From positions 1 to 38,982 of the forward strand of contig CAYJWA010000002.1 in NCBI GenBank assembly GCA_964373775.1: DNA of 38,982 bases. The letters are read 5' to 3'. Below are positions 5,934 to 38,982 of the stretch, one piece after another. The notes beneath the pieces are model-generated. The model was not told where the DNA came from. It made no database searches and saw only the letters and a program-made list of their open reading frames with translations. The number at the start of each line of letters is the position of its first letter. Within the stretch, counting starts at the first letter, position 1. Source of the DNA: an uncultured Candidatus Saccharibacteria bacterium. Lineage in GTDB: Bacteria > Patescibacteriota > Minisyncoccia > Phycocordibacterales > UBA10002. A program made the translations under genes and the position numbers.

Positions 5934-5952
5934 TACAAGGTCCGACCTTGTA
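5934..5952. repeat. 19-bp palindrome family member (TACAAGGTCCGACCTTGTA)
   Basis: Perfect 9-bp arms, between convergent genes. Confidence 0.9.
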
Positions 5953-5988: not shown

Positions 5989-6009
5989 CTACAAGGTCCG
6001 ACCTCGTAG
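5989..6009. repeat. Palindrome family member (CTACAAGGTCCGACCTCGTAG)
   Basis: 10-bp arms with one mismatch, 37 nt after the previous copy. Confidence 0.85.
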
Positions 6010-6025: not shown

Positions 6026-6751
6026 TTATTTCGCGTCAGTTCCGTGTTTCCTGTACAGCGGATGCACCGGCACGGCGCGGATTGCGGTAATGACTTCTTC
6101 GTCGCTGTCCGTAATCGTATAGAGTCCGAGGTCTTTTTCGTCAACCGCGTGGTGAAGCAGGAGCATATTTTCCCGCATAAAGCTATTGAGCGGTTCCCAA
6201 AAGTCGCGCCCCACGAGAAAGATCGGCACCCGCCGTATTTTGTGCGTCTGTATGAGCGTGATGAGTTCAAAAAATTCATCAAGCGTGCCGAATCCTCCCG
6301 GAAAGAAAAGGTACGCCTCTGCGGCGAATGAGAGCGCGACTTTTCGCACGAAAAAATAATCAAATTCAACGCTTGCCGTTGTGTATTGGTTGAACTTTTG
6401 GCGTGTGGGAAGACGAATGTTGAGCCCCGCGGATTTGCCGCCTGCTTCAAACGCGCCTCGATTCGCTGCCTCCATAATGCCGGCGCTCCCGCCGGTGAGC
6501 ACTGTGTAGCCAAGTTCTTTTACAATCTTTCCCGCAAGCGCGCGCGCTTTGATATAGTGTTCGCTCTTCTCGGTGAAACGCGACGAGCCAAAAAAGGTGA
6601 CGGAGCGCGGAAATCTGCCGATAAATTCAAACGCTTCGGTGAATTCTTTGTCAATACGAGACACCCGCGCTTTGATTTCGCGCTGTATTTCTTCTTTGGT
6701 AAGAGCGTGTGAAAAGCGCTCGCTGTCGTTCTGATGTCGTGTTGGCGGCAT
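6026..6751 (-). CDS. LOG-family protein (TIGR00730 / lysine-decarboxylase-like; cytokinin riboside 5'-monophosphate phosphoribohydrolase family)
   Basis: VLTGGSAGIMEAANRGA and FFPGGFGTLDEFFE motifs with typical length. Confidence 0.85.
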   Translation of the reverse strand: MPPTRHQNDSERFSHALTKEEIQREIKARVSRIDKEFTEAFEFIGRFPRSVTFFGSSRFTEKSEHYIKARALAGKIVKELGYTVLTGGSAGIMEAANRGAFEAGGKSAGLNIRLPTRQKFNQYTTASVEFDYFFVRKVALSFAAEAYLFFPGGFGTLDEFFELITLIQTHKIRRVPIFLVGRDFWEPLNSFMRENMLLLHHAVDEKDLGLYTITDSDEEVITAIRAVPVHPLYRKHGTDAK

Positions 6752-6834
6752 GTTTGTTTTTCTATTATAGCGATGGGAACGGAAACGAGCAACTTTTTGT
6801 GTGCAAACTGCGCTTTTTTCTTTATACTGTTGCG

Positions 6835-8082
6835 GTGCGATTTCATATTGAAAAGAAAGTGAAAGGGCGAATGGGGCGCGCGGGTATTCTTGAAACCGCG
6901 CACGGCGCTATTCATACGCCGGCTTTTGTCGCGGTGGGGACCAAAGCAACCGTGAAAGCGGTTGCGCCTGATGCGCTTCGTGCCCTCGGTGCCGAAGTCG
7001 TGCTCGGAAATGCCTATCATCTGTATCTTGAGCCCGGGGAGAAAACAGTTGCGCGCGCCGGGGGTTTTGGAAAGTTTATGGGCTGGGACGGGCCCACCAT
7101 GACCGACTCAGGCGGTTTTCAGATATTCTCGCTCGGTGCGGGATTTGGGCGGCACACGGCCAAAATTAGACCACACCTGCACCATTCTAAACATCGGGTG
7201 TTCACCGAGGAGAGGTGTGGTGTAATTTTTGTGCAGATTGATGAAGACGGGGCAATATTCCGCTCGCACCGGGACGGGAGCAAGCATCGGTTTACACCGG
7301 AGCGTTCCATTGAGATTCAACACGCGCTCGGCGCCGACATCATCTTCGCGTTTGACGAGTGCACTTCGCCCGACGCTCCATATAAGTACCAGAAGCAGGC
7401 GATGGAGCGGACGCACCGGTGGGCCCTTCGTTCGCTAGAAGCGAACCGCCGATTAACGCGGATAAGAACGCGGATTGACGCGGATAAATCATATCAGCGC
7501 ACATCAGCGTTACATCAGCGTCCATCTGCGTTATTCGGAATTGTGCAAGGAGGCCGTCACGAAGATTTGAGAAAGCAGAGCGCACGGACAGTTGGCAAGA
7601 TGGATTTCGATGGCTTCGGCATCGGCGGCTCGTTTGGAAGAGAAGATATGGGGAACGCGGTGCGCTCCGTGAATGAAATCCTGCCGGAGGATAAACCACG
7701 GCACTTGCTCGGCATCGGCGGCATTGAAGATTTGTTTTCCGCCGTTGAAAACGGCTGCGACACCTTTGATTGCGTGTCTCCGACGCGCGAAGCGCGCACG
7801 GGTTCGCTGTATACGAAGCGGGGGAGAATAAACATTACCAATGCGCGTTTTCGGACAGAATTTACGCCCATTGATACCGCGTGCGAGTGTTATACATGCT
7901 GTAATTTTACCCGCGCGTATCTCGCACATCTCTTCCGTTCGCGGGAGATTCTCGCGTACTCGCTCGCCTCGGTCCACAATCTTTCGTTTTTCATCAATCT
8001 GGTGCAAAATATGCGACAGGCGATTTTGGGCGGTGTCTTCCACAAGTTTAGAAAAGAATTTTTGCTACACTATAAAAGTTGA
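6835..8082 (+). CDS. tgt: Queuine tRNA-ribosyltransferase
   Basis: (M)RFHIEKKVKGRMGRAGILETAHGAIHTPAFVAVGT aligns with the MKFEL...TPxFMPVGT N-terminus. Also GGFQIFSL, FAFDECT, and the zinc motif CECYTCCNFTRAYLAHL. GTG at 6835 fits orthologue N-termini; alternative ATG at 6871. A TATACT hexamer lies at 6823-6828. Confidence 0.9.
   Translation: MRFHIEKKVKGRMGRAGILETAHGAIHTPAFVAVGTKATVKAVAPDALRALGAEVVLGNAYHLYLEPGEKTVARAGGFGKFMGWDGPTMTDSGGFQIFSLGAGFGRHTAKIRPHLHHSKHRVFTEERCGVIFVQIDEDGAIFRSHRDGSKHRFTPERSIEIQHALGADIIFAFDECTSPDAPYKYQKQAMERTHRWALRSLEANRRLTRIRTRIDADKSYQRTSALHQRPSALFGIVQGGRHEDLRKQSARTVGKMDFDGFGIGGSFGREDMGNAVRSVNEILPEDKPRHLLGIGGIEDLFSAVENGCDTFDCVSPTREARTGSLYTKRGRINITNARFRTEFTPIDTACECYTCCNFTRAYLAHLFRSREILAYSLASVHNLSFFINLVQNMRQAILGGVFHKFRKEFLLHYKS
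7163..7228. repeat. 66-nt MITE-like element with 16-bp terminal inverted repeats, inserted in frame in tgt
   Basis: aaattagaccacacct ... aggtgtggtgtaattt (15/16 complementary). 22 codons with no stop. A related copy lies at 3158-3215. Confidence 0.8.
7452..7531. repeat. Low-complexity inverted repeat array inside tgt (3x ACGCGGATW, then 4x ATC(A/T)GCG)
   Basis: Direct reading. Encodes RLTRIRTRIDADKSYQRTSALHQRPSA. Confidence 0.75.
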
Positions 8083-9379: not shown

Positions 9380-11677
9380 ATGCAAAAATTCCAGCTGAAA
9401 AGCAAGTTCAGACCCGCTGGTGACCAACCAAAAGCTATTAAGGCATTGGTGGAAGGATTCAAGCGCGGCGAGCGGTATCAAACGCTACTTGGCGTTACCG
9501 GAAGCGGGAAAACCTTCACAGCGGCCAATGTGATTGCGCAGATTCAAAGGCCAACACTGGTGATTGCGCACAATAAAACGCTCGCGGCACAACTTGCGCA
9601 GGAGTACAAAGAGTTTTTTCCGGATAACGCGGTGCATTATTTTGTTTCCTACTACGATTACTACCAGCCGGAGGCGTATCTGCCTATAACCGACACCTAT
9701 ATTGAGAAAGAAGCGCAGATCAACGAGGAGATTGACCGCCTTCGGCACGCGACGACACAGGCGCTTCTCTCGCGCCGAGATGTGATTGTAGTTGCGAGCG
9801 TCTCGTGTATGTATGGGTTGGGAAGTCCCGAGGAATATGAAAAAGTGAATATAAAATTGCAAAAAGGACAGCGCGTCTCTCGCGGCGATGTTTTGCGCGC
9901 GCTCATCGGCATACATTATATACGTACGAACGCAGACCTATCCCCCGGCGAGTGCCGCGCGCTCGGCAATGTGGTGGAGGTAATGCCTCAAAGTGAGCGG
10001 GAGATGTATCGTATTGAGATTAGTGACGAGCTCGTTCAGCGGATTCAAAAGATTGACCCGATTACGCGGAAACTTTTGGAAGAAATAGATGCGTTGTTTA
10101 TTTTTCCGGCAAAACATTTCATCACGCCGGAGGAGGACCGCGCGCGAGCGATTGAGACAATCAAGAGTGAGCTGAAAAACCAGTTGAAGAAATTTGAAAA
10201 AGAGGGGAAATTGCTTGAAGCCGAGCGGCTTAAACGTCGCACCAACTATGACCTCGCGATGATACGCGAAGTCGGCTATTGCAACGGGATTGAAAATTAC
10301 TCACGCCACTTTTCGGGGAAACTCCCCGGCGAACCGCCCGATACCTTGCTTTCATATTTTTCCGCATCTCCAAGGTTCGACCTTAAATCGGGAGAAAGGT
10401 CGAACCTTGGAGATAGTGCAGATTTTTTGACCATCATCGACGAATCTCATGTGACAATTCCACAGCTTCGCGGAATGTATGCGGGGGACAAATCGCGGAA
10501 AGATACGCTTGTCGAACACGGCTTCCGTCTTCCCTCGGCGCGTGACAATCGTCCGTTACAGTTCCACGAGTTTGAGGAGCGGGTAGGGCAAGTGATTTTT
10601 ACCTCGGCGACGCCCGGGCCGTATGAGTTCGAGAAGAGCGGCACAGCAGTTGTCGAGCAGGTCATTAGACCGACTGGATTGGTTGACCCGCAGGTTGAAA
10701 TACGACCGGTAAGCGAGAACTTTTATTCCTCCTTTCCTAAAGGAGGCGCCCCGAATCTTCGAGGGACGGAGGATTTTAAAATCCCTCCTCCGATGTCACA
10801 TCGGAGTGCTCCCTTTAAGAAAGGGAGAAGAGATCGGCAGGGCTACTGCGGACAGATTCAGGACTTTAAAAAATCTACAAGGTCGGACCTTGTAAAAAAA
10901 GAGGGTTATAAAACAGGTTCTTTCACCCGTCTACAAGGTCGGACCTTGTATGGAGGGCAGGTTAAGGATTTCATCGCGGAGGCAGAAAAAGATATCAAAG
11001 CCGGTGGGCGGGTCATTGCGACGACGCTTACGAAGAAAATGGCCGAGGACCTCGCGGCGTTTCTCAAGGAAAAGGGTATCAAAACCGAGTACCTGCACAG
11101 CGACATTTTGACACTGGAGCGGATTATGATTCTGACGCGGTTTCGCAAGGGTGAGTTTGATTGTCTGGTGGGGGTTAATCTTTTGCGCGAAGGGCTGGAC
11201 CTTCCCGAGGTTTCGCTTATCGGCATTTTGGACGCTGACCGCGAGGGGTTTTTGCGTTCGCAGACATCACTCATTCAGATTATTGGTCGCGCGGCGCGCA
11301 ATGTCGCGGGGCGGGTGATTTTGTATGCGGATGTTATTACCGGTTCAATAGAAAAAGCGATTGGCGAGACGAATCGGCGCCGCGCGCTTCAGCTCGCGCA
11401 TAACAAAAAACACGGCATCACGCCGAAAACAATTATCAAAAAAGTGCGTGATATCATCGAAGCCTTCTGCTTGGAGCACGAAAAGGCCGTCAGTCACCTT
11501 ATGGAGATAGACAAAGAAGCGCTGAAAAATAAGACACTCAACCAGTTGCTCAAAGAAAAGAAAGTCCAAATGAACGCGGCAGTCAAAATTCTTGATTTCG
11601 AGACGGCCGCATTGCTCCGCGACGAAATCCGCGAGTTGGAGAAGCTGACACTGCATCCACTTATAATGTATCGCTGA
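9380..11677 (+). CDS. uvrB: Excinuclease ABC subunit B, carrying two in-frame repeat insertions
   Basis: MQKFQLKSKFRPAGDQPKAI...GVTGSGKTF, DESHVT, TLTKKMAEDL, GRAARN and the C-terminal UVR domain. ATG at 9380 fits orthologue N-termini. Confidence 0.95.
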   Translation: MQKFQLKSKFRPAGDQPKAIKALVEGFKRGERYQTLLGVTGSGKTFTAANVIAQIQRPTLVIAHNKTLAAQLAQEYKEFFPDNAVHYFVSYYDYYQPEAYLPITDTYIEKEAQINEEIDRLRHATTQALLSRRDVIVVASVSCMYGLGSPEEYEKVNIKLQKGQRVSRGDVLRALIGIHYIRTNADLSPGECRALGNVVEVMPQSEREMYRIEISDELVQRIQKIDPITRKLLEEIDALFIFPAKHFITPEEDRARAIETIKSELKNQLKKFEKEGKLLEAERLKRRTNYDLAMIREVGYCNGIENYSRHFSGKLPGEPPDTLLSYFSASPRFDLKSGERSNLGDSADFLTIIDESHVTIPQLRGMYAGDKSRKDTLVEHGFRLPSARDNRPLQFHEFEERVGQVIFTSATPGPYEFEKSGTAVVEQVIRPTGLVDPQVEIRPVSENFYSSFPKGGAPNLRGTEDFKIPPPMSHRSAPFKKGRRDRQGYCGQIQDFKKSTRSDLVKKEGYKTGSFTRLQGRTLYGGQVKDFIAEAEKDIKAGGRVIATTLTKKMAEDLAAFLKEKGIKTEYLHSDILTLERIMILTRFRKGEFDCLVGVNLLREGLDLPEVSLIGILDADREGFLRSQTSLIQIIGRAARNVAGRVILYADVITGSIEKAIGETNRRRALQLAHNKKHGITPKTIIKKVRDIIEAFCLEHEKAVSHLMEIDKEALKNKTLNQLLKEKKVQMNAAVKILDFETAALLRDEIRELEKLTLHPLIMYR
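10367..10413. repeat. Perfect 17-bp-stem hairpin element inside uvrB
   Basis: tctccaaggttcgacct (10367-10383), 13-nt loop, aggtcgaaccttggaga (10397-10413). Confidence 0.9.
10712..10954. repeat. 243-nt composite of stacked palindromes inserted in frame in uvrB
   Basis: Hairpins at 10728-10746, 10768-10788, 10790-10804 and 10809-10827, plus 19-bp palindromes at 10876-10894 and 10932-10950. Confidence 0.85.
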
Positions 11678-14088: not shown

Positions 14089-14212
14089 TAGATTAATGTT
14101 GTAAGATTAAGCATAACACAGATTAAAGTTGTAAGATTTAAGTACGACAGTAGAACTCAAAGCCGGATTTCCCTACTTTAATCTTTAATCTTTAATCTGA
14201 AATCTTAAATCT
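14089..14212. repeat. Low-complexity palindromic spacer: 2x ~30-nt AGATTAAWGTTGTAAGATT units facing 4x CTTTAATCT-type units
   Basis: Direct reading. The right-hand units are the reverse complement of AGATTAAAG. Confidence 0.8.
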
Positions 14213-15227: not shown

Positions 15228-17882
15228 ATGCAGCATCAAGGCGATAAAATCATTGTTAAGGGAGCACGGACACATAACCTTAAGAACATCACGGTTGAGA
15301 TGCCGCGCAATAAACTGATTGTATTCACCGGGCTTTCCGGAAGCGGGAAGTCGTCTTTGGCGTTTGATACGATCTTTGCGGAAGGTCAGCGCCGCTATGT
15401 GGAGTCGCTCTCTGCCTACGCGCGGCAGTTCCTGCGGCAGATGCAGAAGCCGGATGTGGACGAGATTATCGGACTCTCGCCGGCCATTTCCATTGACCAA
15501 AAGAGCCGTTCCAACAACCCGCGTTCAACGGTTGCGACCATTACCGAAATTTACGATTATCTGCGCGTCTTGTTTGCGCGCGTCGGGAAACCGCACTGTC
15601 TTCTCTGCGGGCGAGAAATCAAAAAGCTCTCCAACGAAGAAATTAAAGACACCATTTTGGAAGCGGTTGCGCGCGTGCGGAAAAGCGCTGCCGGGCCGAG
15701 GGTTCTTGGCGTCGCCGTGAGCAACGCGAAGCTCAAACTCTACGCGCCCATCGTCGTCGGGCGCAAGGGCGAGTACTACCAGTTGCTCTACGACTTGCTA
15801 GGAAAGGGGTACGCAGCGGTGAAGGTGGACGGTGTTGAGAAAAAACTGCGCGAGCCGATTGTCTTGGAGAAAAACAAGAAGCACGACATTGATGTGTTGG
15901 TAGACGAATTCTTTCTGTCGGAGCTCGCTAGGGGGAGCGACGCGACGAGGGAGCGTCTGCCGGAGGCAATTGAGCGCGCGCTCCACGAATCGGGCGGGCT
16001 CGTGCGCGTAGAAACATCTGCCGAGAGCAAGATTATTTCCGCCAAGTTTATGTGCCCCTACGACGGCTTTTCGTACCCAGAGGTGGAGCCGCGGCTCTTC
16101 TCTTTCAACTCGCCGTACGGCGCGTGTCCGGAATGCAACGGCCTCGGCACGCGGCATTTCTTCGGAGACGAGCCATGCCCGAAATGCAAAGGCGCGCGGC
16201 TGCGCGATGAATCTCTCCATGTCGTGCTCGGAAGCACGACCGCGGACAAGCGCGGACTGGACGCAGACCTACGCGGAAGGGGAAGCGGCGTAAACATTGT
16301 GCAGTTATCGGCCATGTCCATTGCGGATGCATACGACTTTTTCGTGGAGCTGAAGCTCTCGCCGAAGGAGCGGGAAATTGCCAAAGTCGTGCTCCGCGAG
16401 ATTGAGTCGCGACTGCAGTTTATGATTGATGTGGGTATTGAGTACCTCACACTTGACCGGCGGGCGCATACGCTCTCGGGCGGCGAGGCGCAGAGGATTC
16501 GGCTTGCCTCCCAACTGGGGAGCGGGCTCGTGGGCGCCCTGTATGTGCTTGACGAGCCGACCATCGGACTCCACGCGCGAGATAACGCGCGACTCTTGAA
16601 GACCCTTCTGCACCTGCGGGATATCGGGAACACGATTATTGTAGTGGAACATGATGAGGAAACGATTCTTTCCGCGGATTATTTGGTGGATATCGGTCCC
16701 GGAGCCGGCGTGCATGGCGGATACATTGTCGTTGACGGCGATTTGCAAAAGCTGTTGTCGGCAAAGACGAATGCAAGCAAGTCGCTGACACTTTCGTATC
16801 TGCGCGGCGAGGTGGAGATTGAAGTTCCGGAAACGCGCCGCACGCGAGACAAAGGCGCGCTCAAAATCCGCGGCGCAAAGATCTTCAACATACAAAATGT
16901 TTCGGTGGATGTGCCGCTTGGAAAACTGACGGTGATTACCGGCGTATCCGGTTCCGGCAAGTCCTCGTTTCTGTATGAGATTCTGCACAAAAATCTTCAG
17001 GCGCGGTTTGACCGCAGGTACCGAAGCGCTGAAACCTTTCACTGCAGCTCATTTACCGGTACTGAATACCTTTCACGCGCCATTCTCATAGACCAGTCCC
17101 CGATTGGGCGCACGCCACGCTCCAATCCTGCGACCTACACCGGAGCGTGGACATTCATTCGTGGGCTTTTTGCCGAAACTGAGGAGGCGCGCGTGCGCGG
17201 CTGGAGTCCGAGCCGCTTTTCGTTCAATGTGCCCACCGCAGGCGGGTCCGCCTCGGGCGGAAAAGGGGGTAGATGCGAAGCGTGCCAAGGGAACGGCGAG
17301 ATAGCCGTGGAGATGCACTTTCTCCCGACCGTCTATGTCACCTGTGATGTCTGCAATGGCAAGCGATTTATGAAAGAAACGTTGGAGGTGAGGTATAAGA
17401 AAAAAAGCGCCTACGACATACTTCAGATGACGATTGAGGAGTGTCTTGAATTCTTTGAGGATATCCCCGCGGTAGCCGATCGTTTAAAAACTTTAAACGA
17501 TGTAGGCCTAGGGTATCTAGAGTTGGGCCAATCCGCGACGACCCTCTCCGGCGGGGAGGCCCAACGGGTGAAAATATCCTCGGAACTCTATCGTACGCAT
17601 GTCCAAAAGACCATCTATCTTCTGGACGAGCCGACCGTGGGTCTCCACTACGAAGATGTAAAAAAGCTCATTGAGATTCTTCAGAAACTGGTGGACCACG
17701 GAAATACGGTCGTGGTCATTGAGCACAACATGGATGTGATTAAAAGTTCGGACTATGTTATTGACTTCGGGCCGGATGGCGGCGACGGGGGAGGGCAGAT
17801 TATCGCGAAGGGAACGCCGGAAGAAGTTGCAAGCCATAAGAAATCGTACACGGGGGAGTATTTGCGAAAGGCGCTTGGGTAG
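15228..17882 (+). CDS. uvrA: Excinuclease ABC subunit A
   Basis: [34 protein letters not shown], two ABC modules and zinc-finger cysteines. Confidence 0.95.
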
Positions 17883-17960
17883 ATTTAGGATTTATGATTT
17901 AAGATGTAAGAAAAAAACCAGCCGTTCATACCGACACGACTGGCATGGTTCCCTGGACGG

Positions 17961-18385: not shown

Positions 18386-19858
18386 ATGAATAGTCAAGCG
18401 TTTCCCAAGAGGCGAAGGATTTCAAAATCCCTCCCCCCACCGGGTACTCCCTTTAGAAAAGGGAGAATACCCGATACCCCCGGGGTGTATTTCTTTCTTG
18501 GGCGACCGCGAAGCGGTTTAGCCCGAGGGTCTCTACACCCTAAACCCGCAAGGGCGGGTCGGGTTTTGTATATCGGGCGCGCCGCCTCGCTCCGCAATCG
18601 CGTGCGAAGCTATTTCGCACCTGACATCGCGGAGAAGCGAAGCTCGTGGATTGCGAAGATGCTTACCGAGGCGAAGAGTATTAATTTCCGGAAAACCGAT
18701 TCAGTGCTTGAGGCAATTCTCCTTGAGGCATACCTTATCAAAAAACTTCAGCCGCCATACAATACGGAACAGAAAGACGACAAGAGCTTCAACTGCATCG
18801 TCATCACCGACGAGTCGTTTCCCGCGCTTATGGTCGCGCGTCAAAAGAACATAGACTTTTCCTCGGTAAGGATTAAGCCTGCCCGCCGAAACCTCGGCGC
18901 AGGCGGGGATGAAGGATTAAAGATTCGCGCCGTGTACGGTCCTTTCCCGCACGGTGAGGAACTTCAGACCGCGCTTAAAATCATCCGTAAGATTTTTCCC
19001 TTTCGCGACGATACATGTACGCCGTGCCCCCAAAGTATCAGAGGACATTCCAACATTCTCAAGAATGTTGGAATGTTGTGTCGCCCGTGCTTTAACAGGC
19101 AGATAGGACTTTGCCCGGGGGTCTGCACCGGCGAGATACGCGAGCGGGAGTACGCAAAAACAATTCGGAATATCCGGCTCTTTTTTGAGGGGAAAAAACC
19201 GCGACTGCTGAAACTGCTCAAATCAGAAATGAATGCCGCGGCAAAAGCGCAGGAATTTGAAAAAGCTAGCGTAGTTAAAAAAACCATCTTTGCTCTCCAG
19301 CACATCCAAGAGGTCGCCCTCCTCAAAACTTTTAACTTTACACTTTCAACTTTTAACTTCAGGATTGAGGCCTACGACCTCTCGCATTTCGGCGGAAAAG
19401 AAATAGTCGGCGCAATGGCGGTAGTTCTAAACGGCGTCGCGCAAAAAAGCGAGTATCGCCTGTTCAAACTGCGCGGCATCAGGTCGCAAAATGAAGTTGC
19501 CGGTTTGCAGGAAATTATCCGCCGCCGCTTGAATCATCCGGAATGGCTGTTTCCAGATTTGATTGTCGTTGACGGAAACGAGGTCCAGAAAAATGCGGCT
19601 GAAAAGATTCTGAAAGAATGGGGAAGAGTGATTCCGGTTGCCGCGGTCGTGAAAGACGAGCGCCATCGCCCGCGGGAAATTCTTAACAAGATGCTTGCTG
19701 TCGGGCAACCCTCCTACATTCCGAGGAATGTAGGAATATGGAGCGAACAGCAAGAATTACATGCGGCGATTCTTCTGGCGAACAGCGAGGCGCACCGATT
19801 CGTTCTGAAGTTCCAGCGCAGGCAGCGGCTGGTTAAACGAACCGCTGTGAAAAACTGA
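18386..19858 (+). CDS. uvrC: Excinuclease ABC subunit C. Short form with no C-terminal (HhH)2 domain and several in-frame hairpin insertions.
   Basis: GIY-YIG (PGVYFF...VLYIGRA...RNRVRSYF), UVR domain (EFEKASVVKKTIFALQ), endonuclease domain (IEAYDLSHFGG). Ends ~15 aa after SEAHRF. Confidence 0.9.
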   Translation: MNSQAFPKRRRISKSLPPPGTPFRKGRIPDTPGVYFFLGRPRSGLARGSLHPKPARAGRVLYIGRAASLRNRVRSYFAPDIAEKRSSWIAKMLTEAKSINFRKTDSVLEAILLEAYLIKKLQPPYNTEQKDDKSFNCIVITDESFPALMVARQKNIDFSSVRIKPARRNLGAGGDEGLKIRAVYGPFPHGEELQTALKIIRKIFPFRDDTCTPCPQSIRGHSNILKNVGMLCRPCFNRQIGLCPGVCTGEIREREYAKTIRNIRLFFEGKKPRLLKLLKSEMNAAAKAQEFEKASVVKKTIFALQHIQEVALLKTFNFTLSTFNFRIEAYDLSHFGGKEIVGAMAVVLNGVAQKSEYRLFKLRGIRSQNEVAGLQEIIRRRLNHPEWLFPDLIVVDGNEVQKNAAEKILKEWGRVIPVAAVVKDERHRPREILNKMLAVGQPSYIPRNVGIWSEQQELHAAILLANSEAHRFVLKFQRRQRLVKRTAVKN

Positions 19859-20076: not shown

Positions 20077-20266
20077 AAAGCACGAAACACTTTCTTAAAA
20101 CACAAAGCACAGTATCCAAAGAACCAAACAGACTTCACAAAACACAATACATCCACCATTCGGGGGATCTCCCGAAGTGAGACAAAAATCCAAACGAAAA
20201 GGCAAGTTTGTGTTTTGAGTAGTTTGAAGTTTTGTTTGGAAACCGTGCGGTCTGTGTTTTGGAAAG
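20077..20266 (+). repeat. Long structured palindromic element, copy 2 (upstream of rpoB)
   Basis: Core acaaaacacaatacatccaccattcgggggatctcccgaagtgagacaaaaa. The 3' end gtgcggtctgtgttttggaaag is shared with copy 3. Confidence 0.85.
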
Positions 20267-20303
20267 TTGATATGAATATTATTGGTAACGCAGCTCACCC
20301 TAT

Positions 20304-23569: not shown

Positions 23570-23726
23570 GCACAAGCACGAAACAATCTTCTTACAACAC
23601 AAAACACAGTGTCTCCACCCTTCGGGGGATCTCCCGAAGGGAGACAAAAACCCAACGGGGAAATGAGTTTGTGTTTTGAAAAGATTGTGTTTTGTCTGGA
23701 CTTTGTGCGGTCTGTGTTTTGGAAAG
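23570..23726 (+). repeat. Long structured palindromic element, copy 3 (rpoB-rpoC intercistronic)
   Basis: Core acaaaacacagtgtctccacccttcgggggatctcccgaagggagacaaaaa. Starts 3 nt after the rpoB stop. Confidence 0.85.
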
Positions 23727-23770
23727 GGTAAGAAGTTCTTGTTTCGGCTTTGCCAAGTAATCCTTATTGT

Positions 23771-27861: not shown

Positions 27862-28875
27862 ATGAGTTTTTTCACCCCCAAACTCGGAATTGACCTCGGC
27901 ACCGCCAACACCTTGGTGTATGTTCCGGGCAAGGGCATTGTGCTCAATGAGCCGTCCGTGGTGGCGGTCTCCGAGCAGGACAATCGGATTCTTGCGGTCG
28001 GGGATGAGGCGAAGAAGATGGTGGGGAAGACACCGGAAGAGATCGTGGCGTACCGGCCCATGAAAGACGGAGTGATTGCGGACTACCGCGTGACCGAGGC
28101 AATGCTCCGGTACTTTATTACGAAAGCCCTCGGCAGATGGAACATCTGGAAGCCGGAAGTGCTCGTTTCTGTGCCCGCAGGCGTTACTTCAACAGAGCGG
28201 CGCGCCGTGATTGAAGCCGCCATCAAAGCCGGCGCGAAGAACGCGTATGTGGTGAAGGAGCCGATTCTTGCGGCAATCGGCGCGGGCATCCCGATTCACG
28301 AGCCCGTGGGGCACATGATTGTGGACATTGGCGGCGGCACCACCGATGTTGCGGTCATATCGCTCGGCGGCATCGTCTCTTCCACTTCAGTCAAGTGCGC
28401 CGGAAACCGCGTTGATTCCGCAATTGCGGATTACATCAAAAAGACCTTTAACCTCGCGATTGGCGACAAGATGGCGGAAGATGTGAAGATAGAGATCGGC
28501 TCTGCTGTTCCGTTGGAGGAGGAACTCTCCCTCCTGATTAAGGGACGCGACTTCATTACCGGGCTTCCGCGCACCGCAGAGGTGAAGACAAATGAAGTCG
28601 TGAAGGCAATCGGCAGGGAACTGCGGGAGATGATTAAATCAATCAAGGATGTTCTGCAGGAGACGCCGCCGGAGCTCTCTGCGGATATTATTGACCGAGG
28701 GATTATTATGACCGGCGGCTCGTCCCAGTTGCGCAACTTTCCGGAGTTGGTCTTCCGGCGGACCGGCGTGAAAGCAGTGCTCGCGAAAGACGCGCTCTTC
28801 TGCGTGGCAAAGGGCACCGGCATCGCGCTCGCGCACCTGGATACCTACAAGAAGTCAGTCATTGCGAAGAGGTAG
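27862..28875 (+). CDS. mreB: Rod shape-determining actin homologue MreB
   Basis: GIDLGTANTLVY, DIGGGTTDVAV and MTGGSSQLRN. Confidence 0.95.
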   Translation: MSFFTPKLGIDLGTANTLVYVPGKGIVLNEPSVVAVSEQDNRILAVGDEAKKMVGKTPEEIVAYRPMKDGVIADYRVTEAMLRYFITKALGRWNIWKPEVLVSVPAGVTSTERRAVIEAAIKAGAKNAYVVKEPILAAIGAGIPIHEPVGHMIVDIGGGTTDVAVISLGGIVSSTSVKCAGNRVDSAIADYIKKTFNLAIGDKMAEDVKIEIGSAVPLEEELSLLIKGRDFITGLPRTAEVKTNEVVKAIGRELREMIKSIKDVLQETPPELSADIIDRGIIMTGGSSQLRNFPELVFRRTGVKAVLAKDALFCVAKGTGIALAHLDTYKKSVIAKR

Positions 28876-28880
28876 GAGAT

Positions 28881-28985
28881 GCAGAACAGGGAACAGGGAA
28901 CAGGGAACAGGGAACATGAAATATGGAATATGAAATATGAAATAGGGAACAGGGAACATGAAATATGGAACATGAAATATGAAAT
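28881..28985. repeat. Heptamer microsatellite array (15 units of AGGGAAC / ATGAAAT / ATGGAAY), including a 2x 42-nt tandem duplication
   Basis: Direct reading. The 42-nt units lie at 28902-28943 and 28944-28985. Confidence 0.9.
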
Positions 28986-36828: not shown

Positions 36829-37575
36829 ATGACTTTCCACATCATCACTCTCTTCCCCCGCGCCTTTGACTCTTACCTCGGAGAGTCCATCTTACAGCGC
36901 GCCATTCTGGACAAGAAAATCAAGGTGAAGTTTTACAACCCGCGCGACTTCGCCGAAGACAAACACAGACGCATAGATCGCGCGCCGTACGGAGGCGGGC
37001 CCGGGATGGTGATTCAAGCGGAACCGGTACTCAAAGCAGTAGAAACTGCTTTGAGAGATTTAAGATTTAAGATTTATGATTTAAGAAAGAAGAAGCTAAA
37101 CACTAAACGCTCTACGCTAAACGTTTTTCCCAAAATCATCTGGCTATCGCCAAGCGGAAAGCAATTTACGAATGAGACCGGTATAAAATTCGCGCAATGC
37201 AGCGACCTTATCATCATCTGCGGGCGGTACGAGGGGATAGACGCGCGCGTGAAAAAAGTTCTACAAGACACGGCACGAATCCGCCGCGGCGGACGAATAA
37301 AATTGGAAGAGATATCAGTTGGACCGTTTGTGCTGACCGGCGGGGAACTGCCCGCAATGCTTCTGATTGATGTAATATCTCGACAGGTAGAAGGAGTGCT
37401 CGGCGACCCTCGCTCGCGCGAGGAGTCGCGAGTCGCAAGTCCGGAAGTGTACACCCGCCCGGAGGTTTTTCTGTATCGCGGAAAGAAATATCGCGTCCCC
37501 AAAATCCTCCTCTCCGGCCACCACCGGAAAATCGACGAGTGGCGACAAAGAAAAAGGAATTTTACGAGCATCTGA
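36829..37575 (+). CDS. trmD: tRNA (guanine37-N1)-methyltransferase, with two in-frame repeat insertions
   Basis: ITLFPRAF, DRAPYGGGPGMV, CGRYEGIDARV, LTGGELPAM and RPEV...VPKILLSGHH. Confidence 0.95.
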   Translation: MTFHIITLFPRAFDSYLGESILQRAILDKKIKVKFYNPRDFAEDKHRRIDRAPYGGGPGMVIQAEPVLKAVETALRDLRFKIYDLRKKKLNTKRSTLNVFPKIIWLSPSGKQFTNETGIKFAQCSDLIIICGRYEGIDARVKKVLQDTARIRRGGRIKLEEISVGPFVLTGGELPAMLLIDVISRQVEGVLGDPRSREESRVASPEVYTRPEVFLYRGKKYRVPKILLSGHHRKIDEWRQRKRNFTSI

Positions 37576-38822: not shown

Positions 38823-38895
38823 TGGCGACAGAAATCTTTGCTGTGTGCGGATGGACGGGCCCGTTCGTTCATAGCAGATACGTTTAACGAATAGA

Positions 38896-38982
38896 GGTAG
38901 ATACACTTGACGAATGGTGCACACGAATACCAAAAGCGGTAGATACACTTGACGAATGGTGCACGCGAATTTTAGGAAGGCG
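38896..38982. repeat. 42-bp-period tandem repeat at the window end (about 2 units), continuous with nt 1-55
   Basis: ggtagatacacttgacgaatggtgcacacgaa at 38896-38927, then taccaaaagc + the same core at 38928-38969. Confidence 0.9.

Follow-up and report, generated by a model that had tools for sequence, protein, structure and literature searches.

A stretch of 38,982 nt, positions 1-38,982 of contig CAYJWA010000002.1 from a genome assembly of an uncultured member of the Paceibacteria (Patescibacteria), was analysed (hereafter the window). It is a piece of ordinary chromosome, carrying tgt, purS, uvrB, a FIST/histidine-kinase/response-regulator set, uvrA, uvrC, rpoB, rpoC, mreB, the gene of a 2,493-amino-acid surface protein and trmD. 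Its uvrB gene contains a perfect hairpin, translated in frame directly before the codons of helicase motif II. Here we show that this hairpin belongs to a family of small palindromic repeats that is spread throughout a class-level clade, with copies between genes as well as inside them. The proteins of the Candidate Phyla Radiation (CPR, or Patescibacteria) are known for odd lineage-specific insertions, the origin of which has rarely been explained.

A perfect hairpin in the uvrB coding sequence

The gene and its hairpin comprise the following features.

9383-11677, forward strand: uvrB coding sequence (CDS), 764 amino acids, intact and in one continuous open reading frame (ORF), host to the site-1 hairpin and, at site 2, to a composite insert
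10364-10417, forward strand: extra segment at site 1, 18 amino acids relative to Bacillus UvrB, directly before helicase motif II (DESH), in a predicted disordered loop
10366-10384, forward strand: left arm of the hairpin, ATCTCCAAGGTTCGACCTT, with 10372-10384 as the shared core and 10366-10371 as the locus-specific outer stem
10385-10395, forward strand: loop of 11 nt, AAATCGGGAGA, translated K-S-G-E and also present in other Paceibacteria copies; its reverse complement is read S-P-D
10396-10414, forward strand: right arm, AAGGTCGAACCTTGGAGAT, with 10396-10408 as the shared core and 10409-10414 as the outer stem
10372-10408, unstranded: 37-nt core of the dispersed repeat (13-nt arm, 11-nt loop, 13-nt arm), delimited by metagenome depth, diverging contigs and 18 aligned public copies
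Peptide stretch at the hairpin: SPRFDLKSGERSNLG (predicted translation)

The uvrB product matches solved UvrB structures from end to end in a phmmer search of the PDB (2fdc_A, E = 1e-227, in two aligned blocks), and its best-matching relatives, 74-75% identical, come from Patescibacteria of the Paceibacteria/Taylorbacteria type. UvrB is conserved for DNA repair but is not in general essential, which qualifies the label of "essential ORF" used in an earlier note on this DNA.

Positions 10366-10414 form a perfect inverted repeat whose 19-nt arms are 100% complementary and separated by 11 nt. The earlier note had recognised the perfect hairpin with a 17-bp stem and a 13-nt loop; the full stem is 19 bp, of which those 17 bp are the inner part, and the loop is 11 nt. 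Its peptide context, LLSYF-SASPRFDLKSGERSNLGDSA-DFLTIIDESHVT, is correct as given, and the extra segment does lie at the hairpin, with a count of 18 residues against the UvrB of Bacillus caldotenax (nt 10364-10417), the note having estimated roughly 17 against that of E. coli. Folded as RNA, the 101 nt surrounding the hairpin reach -37.9 kcal/mol, compared with -20.4 +/- 3.3 kcal/mol for 200 dinucleotide shuffles (z = -5.4, none of the 200 as good), and chance would not be expected to produce the arm sequence in the window (0 of 100 shuffles). The hairpin and the surrounding gene sequence recur without differences in contigs from three independent metagenome runs; since these are independent assemblies, the hairpin is not an assembly artefact.

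Several conventional identities were rejected. Apart from two tRNAs, Rfam gave no match at gathering score over the window, and a permissive scan of 10250-11050 returned a noise match alone (MIR6426, E = 0.56), which leaves no known RNA family for the hairpin. An intein or a self-splicing intron does not fit a segment of 18 amino acids (54 nt), which is far too small, and no Rfam intron matched. Programmed bypass is unnecessary, because the ORF is continuous and in frame.

A dispersed palindromic repeat family

The two arms of the hairpin are variant forms of a palindromic unit of 19 nt (TACAAGGTCSGACCTTGTA), itself a near-perfect palindrome of the form TACAAGGTC-S-GACCTTGTA, with C or G at its centre. 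The window holds five further copies of this unit against 0.01 expected, all belonging to the same repeat family as the arm (family D5), three of them intergenic and two in the second uvrB insert, at a density of about 1 per 6.5 kb.

630-648, unstranded: single unit in a region without a convincing gene, apparently non-coding
5934-5952, unstranded: intergenic unit between convergent genes (for a DUF456 protein and a LOG-family protein)
5990-6008, unstranded: unit with 1 mismatch, 56 nt from the 5934-5952 copy, with which it forms an intergenic doublet
10876-10894, unstranded: unit TACAAGGTCGGACCTTGTA in the site-2 insert of uvrB, read (S)TRSDLV
10932-10950, unstranded: second uvrB copy, 56 nt downstream of the 10876-10894 copy, read in a different frame as (L)QGRTLY

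Both doublets are thus spaced at exactly 56 nt. The two uvrB units are read in different frames (STRSDLV and LQGRTLY), something that nothing but a DNA-level entity would show.

We then searched one genome per species of Bacteria and Archaea (GTDB) with exact patterns. The 19-nt unit was found in at least 100 stretches from at least 31 assemblies, all of them metagenome-assembled genomes (MAGs) of Patescibacteria, where about 4 chance matches were expected in the whole collection; several of these MAGs had 5-9 contigs matched by the unit. Only 32% of 117 unit copies lie well inside open frames of at least 200 codons, as against 69% of random positions (68% versus 31% outside them), so that the unit prefers intergenic DNA yet is often intragenic. 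Its Pfam-confirmed in-frame hosts are RecG, TGT, RNase R, a Mur ligase, DinB and DegT.

The form with the complete hairpin and loop (13-nt arm, AAATCGGGAGA, 13-nt arm) is present in 6 contigs of GTDB genomes and 18 metagenome contigs from JGI. Some copies lie between genes, others in frame in IleS (two orthologous genes), MnmA, LigA, TopA and UvrB. These other Paceibacteria copies combine the same 11-nt loop with arms that vary in a compensatory manner. The IleS-type synthetases concerned (L189:2536-6306 and L202:2693-6364) also have a complete histidine-phosphatase domain (His_Phos_1) inserted in mid-synthetase, an unusual fusion.

The communities from which the window was assembled contain many copies as well. 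Contig depth over 10351-10432 in the four source metagenomes was 325, 47, 54 and 336, compared with 62, 13, 8 and 5 in the respective flanks (a 4-60-fold excess), and dozens of small contigs from these metagenomes match 10371/2-10408 only and then diverge; together these observations define a 37-nt core that is multi-copy in those communities. Phages were considered as a vector and rejected, neither the unit nor the hairpin form being found in a collection of viral contigs. In the literature open to searching we came across no earlier account of elements of this kind in CPR bacteria.

Two insertion sites in UvrB

Among 120 UvrB orthologues, the usual sequence at site 1 is LLSYF-PHKADGSPD-FLTIIDESHVT, where the window has instead SASPRFDLKSGERSNLGDSAD, a net gain of 12 amino acids. 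Most orthologues are without the palindromic element at this site; other, unrelated-looking inserts occur there in about 25 of the 120. Site 2, with VEIRPVNEKGKYGGQIKDF as its baseline, has received inserts in about 45 of the 120, and in the window it is occupied by a composite.

10712-10954, forward strand: composite site-2 insert, 81 amino acids relative to Bacillus UvrB (alignment gap, query 444-524), in the linker between the two helicase domains, predicted disordered
10777-10829, unstranded: second, unrelated dispersed repeat of 53 nt nested in the site-2 insert, with a depth spike, matches in contigs of 2-4 kb and BLAST matches in L183, L192/L194 and L163

AlphaFold2 (44-sequence alignment, mean predicted local distance difference test score, pLDDT, of 70) models both inserts as coil with a pLDDT below 50 (residues 330-345 and 449-521, the latter at about 30). 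Well-predicted core elements flank both, and a structured strand (E350-354) follows the site-1 insert.

Short peptide words are shared by distant lineages and by both sites (TRSDLV...QGRTLY, RPDLKSGEKSDL and RSNLKGAQGSTL), and one DNA palindrome, read in different frames, encodes all of these recurring words. The element at the two sites can also be followed between relatives: L083 (about 64% identity) has the baseline at site 1 but an element at site 2, with an identical loop and decayed arms. We considered whether the baseline loop of site 1 might itself be an ancient copy of the unit, as CCGTACAAGGCCGAC of L083 resembles TACAAGGTCCGAC, and rejected this, the baseline P[HKR]x[AKE][DN]G[TSK][PA]D being unlike the unit in 59 lineages; across these lineages, the baseline loop varies freely at third codon positions.

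The site-2 insert also holds several small hairpins and a second copy of the conserved GQ(I/V)xDF motif, GYCGQIQDF at 10841-10867 beside the functional YGGQVKDF at 10949-10972, which suggests a local duplication or layered insertions.

Conservation of the palindrome as nucleic acid

Eighteen distinct copies of the hairpin were aligned. The inner 13 bp pair almost without exception, and four of the pairs switch Watson-Crick type, for instance 14/36 (GC in 11 copies, AU in 7) and 12/38 (UA in 12, CG in 5). The covariation score is 0.302 versus 0.144 in shuffles, none of 500 being as high, and sliding the register lowers pairing to 26-52%. The invariance of the loop, on the other hand, is not independent evidence, because the loop was fixed by the search pattern.

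Direct comparison with the closest relative, L081 (82% aligned amino-acid identity), which has the element at the same uvrB site, leads to the same conclusion. The arms share 9 of 10 codons and 29 of 30 nt with those of the window, when third positions are 48% identical over the whole gene and identical amino acids use the same codon in 51% of cases (p about 0.013 for the excess in the arms). The sole change in the L081 arms keeps a G.U pair. By the refuting condition that the note itself set, conservation would have been a matter of the protein had relatives carried the same residues with synonymous changes that break the stem; L081 clearly shows the opposite, the arm codons being kept and the stem with them. 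The central proposal of the earlier note, an in-frame palindromic insertion that protein-level selection can hardly explain, is accordingly borne out by the presence of the same DNA between genes, in other genes, in both orientations and at the other uvrB site. That the insertion is "recent", as the note supposed, does not follow: the element shared with L081 at the same site is either old and maintained, or re-acquired.

Of 121 units, 21 show palindromy that extends at least 4 bp past the shared core, as do 6 of 20 hairpins, where chance predicts 0.4% per copy. The outer 6 bp of the window's stem (ATCTCC/GGAGAT) are specific to the locus; L081 has flanks TTTTCC/GGAAAA, its outer stem making use of the conserved Tyr-Phe codons of the host gene. 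Insertion at the apex of existing hairpins, outward growth of the stem by fold-back templated synthesis, or the existence of longer-armed subfamilies are all possible explanations.

Flipped loops and reading frame

The loop of L081 is the reverse complement of the window loop with two mismatches, and the loop peptide differs between these closest relatives (KSGE in the window, FPDS in L081) because the DNA is flipped. The same is seen in IleS, where the element sits at exactly the same nucleotide in L202 and L189 and has identical arms, the loops being opposite (RFNL-KSGE-RLNL and RFNL-SPD-LRLNL). As the arms are mutual reverse complements, a flipped loop amounts to the inversion of the whole element, with length and frame kept. 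These two orthologous pairs would favour in-situ inversion or site-specific re-insertion.

All six frames of the 19-mer are free of stop codons, and the 37-mer is open in 4 of 6. In each of its eight hosts verified by Pfam, the hairpin is read in the frame AGG-NNN-RAC-CTT (R-x-D/N-L), which yields charged, hydrophilic residues, and it is oriented forward to the coding strand in four of them and in reverse in the other four; the 19-mer is mostly read TRSDLV. The picture that emerges is that copies spread as DNA, after which selection acts on their frame and favours permissive loops.

Origin of the uvrB hairpin

Our favoured explanation, to which we assign a probability of roughly 0.8, is that the hairpin comes from a family of small, non-autonomous palindromic repeats endemic to Paceibacteria, this copy being lodged in a disordered loop of UvrB and filtered for frame by selection. 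It would be a full-length, undecayed copy, an inverted doublet of a unit variant around the conserved 11-nt loop, with an architecture like that of REPINs (hairpins formed by doublets of repetitive extragenic palindromic, or REP, sequences). Copies would spread as DNA, mostly into intergenic positions, and those landing in genes would survive only if the frame is kept, no stop codon is introduced and the extra peptide falls in a permissive, disordered surface loop. The UvrB loops before motif II and at the inter-domain linker would both have been colonised repeatedly by different lineages. Selection would retain one hydrophilic frame (R-x-D/N-L ... K-S-G-E or S-P-D ... R-x-N-L). The palindrome is kept as DNA: its arms change by compensatory pairs only, and its loop is found flipped at the same site in orthologues. 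Mobilisation would probably involve the single-stranded hairpin and a trans-acting enzyme, as it does in REPINs. The repeat family and its spread over the clade, its copies inside and outside coding sequence, the covarying arms, the flipped loops, the bias in frame and the position in predicted disordered loops are shown by the data; we infer that mobilisation is transposition-like, that the copy in uvrB is cargo, either neutral or slightly deleterious, and that UvrB is still functional.

Several observations weigh against this explanation. The genes of the 39-kb window include no transposase or insertion sequence, hence no mobilising enzyme was identified there. In 4,328 ORFs from 1.5 Mb of Paceibacteria loci, phmmer found no match to Y1-transposase and REP-associated tyrosine transposase (RAYT) probes (IS200/IS605 TnpA and RAYT), a weak negative with approximate probes. 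The source populations yielded no empty-site allele, the main contigs of three runs being identical to the window, although assembled contigs cannot show absence or reveal rare alleles. No direct target-site duplication is visible; inverted repeats often flank the copies instead, an arrangement foreign to standard cut-and-paste models. The TA...TA ends of the unit and the 17-nt overlapping tandem of L106 hinted at a TA target-site duplication, but the 19-mer search pattern itself required TA ends. Nor is the insert a clean addition of 37 or 49 nt to the baseline loop, the net gain being 36 nt with neighbouring codons altered. Finally, arms conserved almost perfectly where synonymous positions are nearly saturated might also reflect a function under selection instead of selfish persistence.

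A further reading, which we put forward as tentative and with the odds against it, holds that these are self-maintaining intragenic palindromes. Fold-back (template-switch) synthesis would keep them perfect and extend them outward into host codons, the loops would flip in situ with the frame unchanged, and the palindromes, along with at least two other hairpin-forming families (in uvrA, uvrB and uvrC), would act at the level of DNA as a major source of the disordered, lineage-specific insertions of the CPR. The reading arises because palindromy runs beyond the core into locus-specific flanks. If it were true, it would describe a general engine of loop innovation across a whole bacterial radiation.

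That the hairpin is a selected cis-acting nucleic-acid element, repeatedly recruited as a ribosome-pausing mRNA structure at a domain boundary, as a determinant of RNase III cleavage or stability, or as the DNA or RNA site of a clade-specific loop-binding protein, is improbable. Such a role would account for a loop common to several lineages on covarying stems, for arms conserved above the synonymous background, for the position of both uvrB sites at domain junctions and for the terminator-like aspect of some intergenic copies (a 23-bp stem followed by a T-run in L198, and the window doublet between convergent genes). However, most orthologues do without the element at site 1, and the invariance of the loop is in part imposed by the search pattern. 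With orientations divided 4 to 4, moreover, the mRNA has either AAAUCGGGAGA or its complement, and a sequence-specific function of the RNA loop is therefore unlikely.

We give very little credence to a motif akin to DNA-uptake signals (the uptake signal sequence, USS, and the DNA uptake sequence, DUS), enriched through biased uptake and recombination in DNA-scavenging bacteria and retained in tolerant frames and loops. The family is clade-specific and has "dialects", and its copies in coding sequence tend towards one frame and towards protein regions of low conservation; DUS, for their part, often occur as inverted pairs near terminators. But the copies go with gains in length, as insertions do, and not with in-place substitutions, the window has about 1 unit per 6.5 kb and not about 1 per kb, and the unit is palindromic and enriched outside ORFs, whereas known uptake signals are asymmetric.

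Least credible of all are two readings. According to one, the hairpin is a stem-loop guide module, or its relic, of the tandem interspaced guide RNA (TIGR) type, lying in frame within a disordered loop. In CPR genomes, tigRNA units are reported to be flanked by palindromes, to be able to sit in a CDS without breaking its frame and to have a conserved CUU at the stem base (10.64898/2026.09.09.750476); the unit studied here contains CUU, and the 56-nt period of its doublets is near the ~54 nt of the PateTasR tigRNA. Yet two 14-nt box C-spacer-box D intervals do not fit into an 11-nt loop, the uvrB doublet lacks any valid pair of them, and the intergenic doublet passes a relaxed rule only, as do 14% of random 75-mers. 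The window ORFs include no Nop-domain Tas protein, the copies are dispersed singly across many genomes and not in arrays, and the intragenic units of the preprint lie in the tas gene itself (10.64898/2026.09.09.750476). On the box C/D interval test and the lack of a tas gene in the window, a TIGR identity was rejected. The other, an adaptive protein-level insertion serving UvrB function with the palindrome incidental or a product of local template switching, agrees with a site 1 that tolerates many different inserts and with a hydrophilic peptide in a strongly preferred frame, but is contradicted by the same DNA in intergenic regions and unrelated proteins, by synonymous positions frozen in the arms while the baseline loop of the clade drifts, by a loop peptide that differs between closest relatives (KSGE and FPDS) because the DNA is flipped, and by the predicted disorder of the segment.

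The palindromic repeats provide a concrete DNA-level source of insertions: tiny elements recolonise the same permissive loops in enzymes of repair, replication, translation and tRNA modification throughout a class-level clade. Being homoplasious, such inserts may be mis-aligned or taken for shared derived characters in annotation and phylogenomics. They account for low-confidence loops in structure prediction, and dispersed perfect palindromes break metagenome contigs.

Other repeats in the window

Further lineage-specific, hairpin-forming in-frame inserts were noticed in uvrC (18872-18907, 18497-18547 and 19045-19076, the last a perfect 15-bp palindrome within the ORF) and in uvrA (17232-17261). 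The UvrC sequence IKPARRNLGAGG matches PARRSLGAGG, present in a different lineage (P0058) at site 2 of UvrB; this match points to a third family of palindromic repeats. The TGT protein (tgt, 6709-8082) has an extra segment, RLTRIRTRIDADKSYQRTSALHQRPS, ahead of its conserved ALFGIVQGG, and TGT-like words of the type (T)QI(D/S)ADG occur in site-1 inserts of UvrB in other lineages (P0040, P0046 and P0051), hinting at a further gene-shared repeat family.

Three copies of an element of about 120 nt (1145-1277, 20136-20268 and 23598-23728; 62-88% identity), with an internal hairpin (GGGGATCTCCCGAAGGGAGAC) and flanking inverted repeats, lie directly upstream of a 601-amino-acid low-complexity ORF, rpoB and rpoC and could represent a shared leader, promoter or RNA motif. 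Between mreB and the gene of the 2,493-amino-acid Big_5/PG_binding surface protein, 28871-28985 consists of tandem 7-nt units (GGGAACA and TGAAATA variants, with a 14-nt period). The intergenic segments 14090-14199, 17881-17912 and 37056-37101 contain AT-rich repeats of the AGATTTAAGATT type together with inverted repeats, possibly shared promoter or terminator motifs. The ends of the window, 1-55 and 38928-38982, form a 55-nt direct repeat with 98% identity, a third copy of which lies at 38886-38940, offset by 42 nt; this repeat may have broken the assembly, or may be an assembler overlap falsely implying circularity, the gene content being chromosomal.

Comparison with known element families

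The behaviour of the family recalls the Rickettsia palindromic elements (RPEs), repeats of about 100-150 bp that encode a conserved peptide module and are confined to Rickettsia and its relatives, in frame in housekeeping genes (Ogata et al. 2000, as summarised in PMC10969869). Like RPEs, the Paceibacteria element has many palindromic copies, occurs in frame in unrelated genes at fold-compatible positions, is translated and is also found between genes; no encoded transposase is known for either. Its in-frame hosts comprise UvrB, IleS, MnmA, LigA, TopA, RecG, TGT, RNase R, Mur ligase, DinB and DegT. It differs in its dimensions (a 19-nt unit and a hairpin of 37-49 nt), its CPR/Paceibacteria host, its short conserved loop, its covarying arms and its flips at orthologous sites. 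The likeness is one of behaviour, drawn from description, between hosts of unrelated phyla.

In anatomy the closest likeness is to REP sequences and REPINs, the ~20-nt imperfect palindromes mobilised by RAYTs, and their inverted doublets that form hairpins, which are essentially extragenic (Bertels and Rainey; PMC3337134, PMC3116915). A palindromic unit of ~20 nt, a hairpin made of an inverted doublet, fixed doublet spacings and two orientations are common to both (PMC3337134). The units studied here are enriched outside long ORFs. Copies are numerous, with five units and one doublet hairpin in 39 kb and depth spikes in the source metagenomes, and doublets occur as the 10366-10414 hairpin with its 11-nt spacer and as two pairs at exactly 56 nt. 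Unlike REP sequences and REPINs, about a third of the units lie in long ORFs, in frame (many of these hosts being Pfam-verified), and the host phylum differs. Most REP sequences have a GTAG/CGTC tag at one end (PMC3733652); CTAC precedes only three of the five window units, and no tag is present at the hairpin. A genome with REP sequences also has a cognate single-copy RAYT, a Y1 HUH transposase that REP sequences usually flank; none is encoded in the window, and the approximate probes matched none of the 4,328 ORFs from 1.5 Mb of loci.

[quoted passage not shown] They usually measure 50-500 bp, produce direct target-site duplications and have an identifiable parent insertion sequence (PMC10969869, PMC2229807), whereas the element described here is smaller and its flanks tend to be inverted, not direct (ATCTCC/GGAGAT in the window, TTTTCC/GGAAAA in L081).

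The intragenic TIGR-Tas arrays of CPR genomes resemble it in being bounded by palindromes, in lying in disordered loops of a CDS without a frame break and in having CUU at the stem (10.64898/2026.09.09.750476). A tigRNA unit, however, is defined by a stem around two intervals of box C (CNA/CUU), a 9-nt spacer and box D (TG/CG) at most 15 nt apart, and the units form arrays with a neighbouring tas gene (10.64898/2026.09.09.750476); the Paceibacteria element has neither such intervals, nor a tas neighbour, nor an array. From USS and DUS it departs in not occurring at ~1 per kb, in not being asymmetric and in not being born by substitution.

On this comparison, the hairpin behaves like selfish DNA of the REPIN or RPE type and is not a demonstrable member of any described family. 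It represents an RPE-like phenomenon outside Rickettsia, the element being smaller by a factor of 3-8 and its loop invertible, and offers a tractable case for studying how frame and structure filter selfish DNA.

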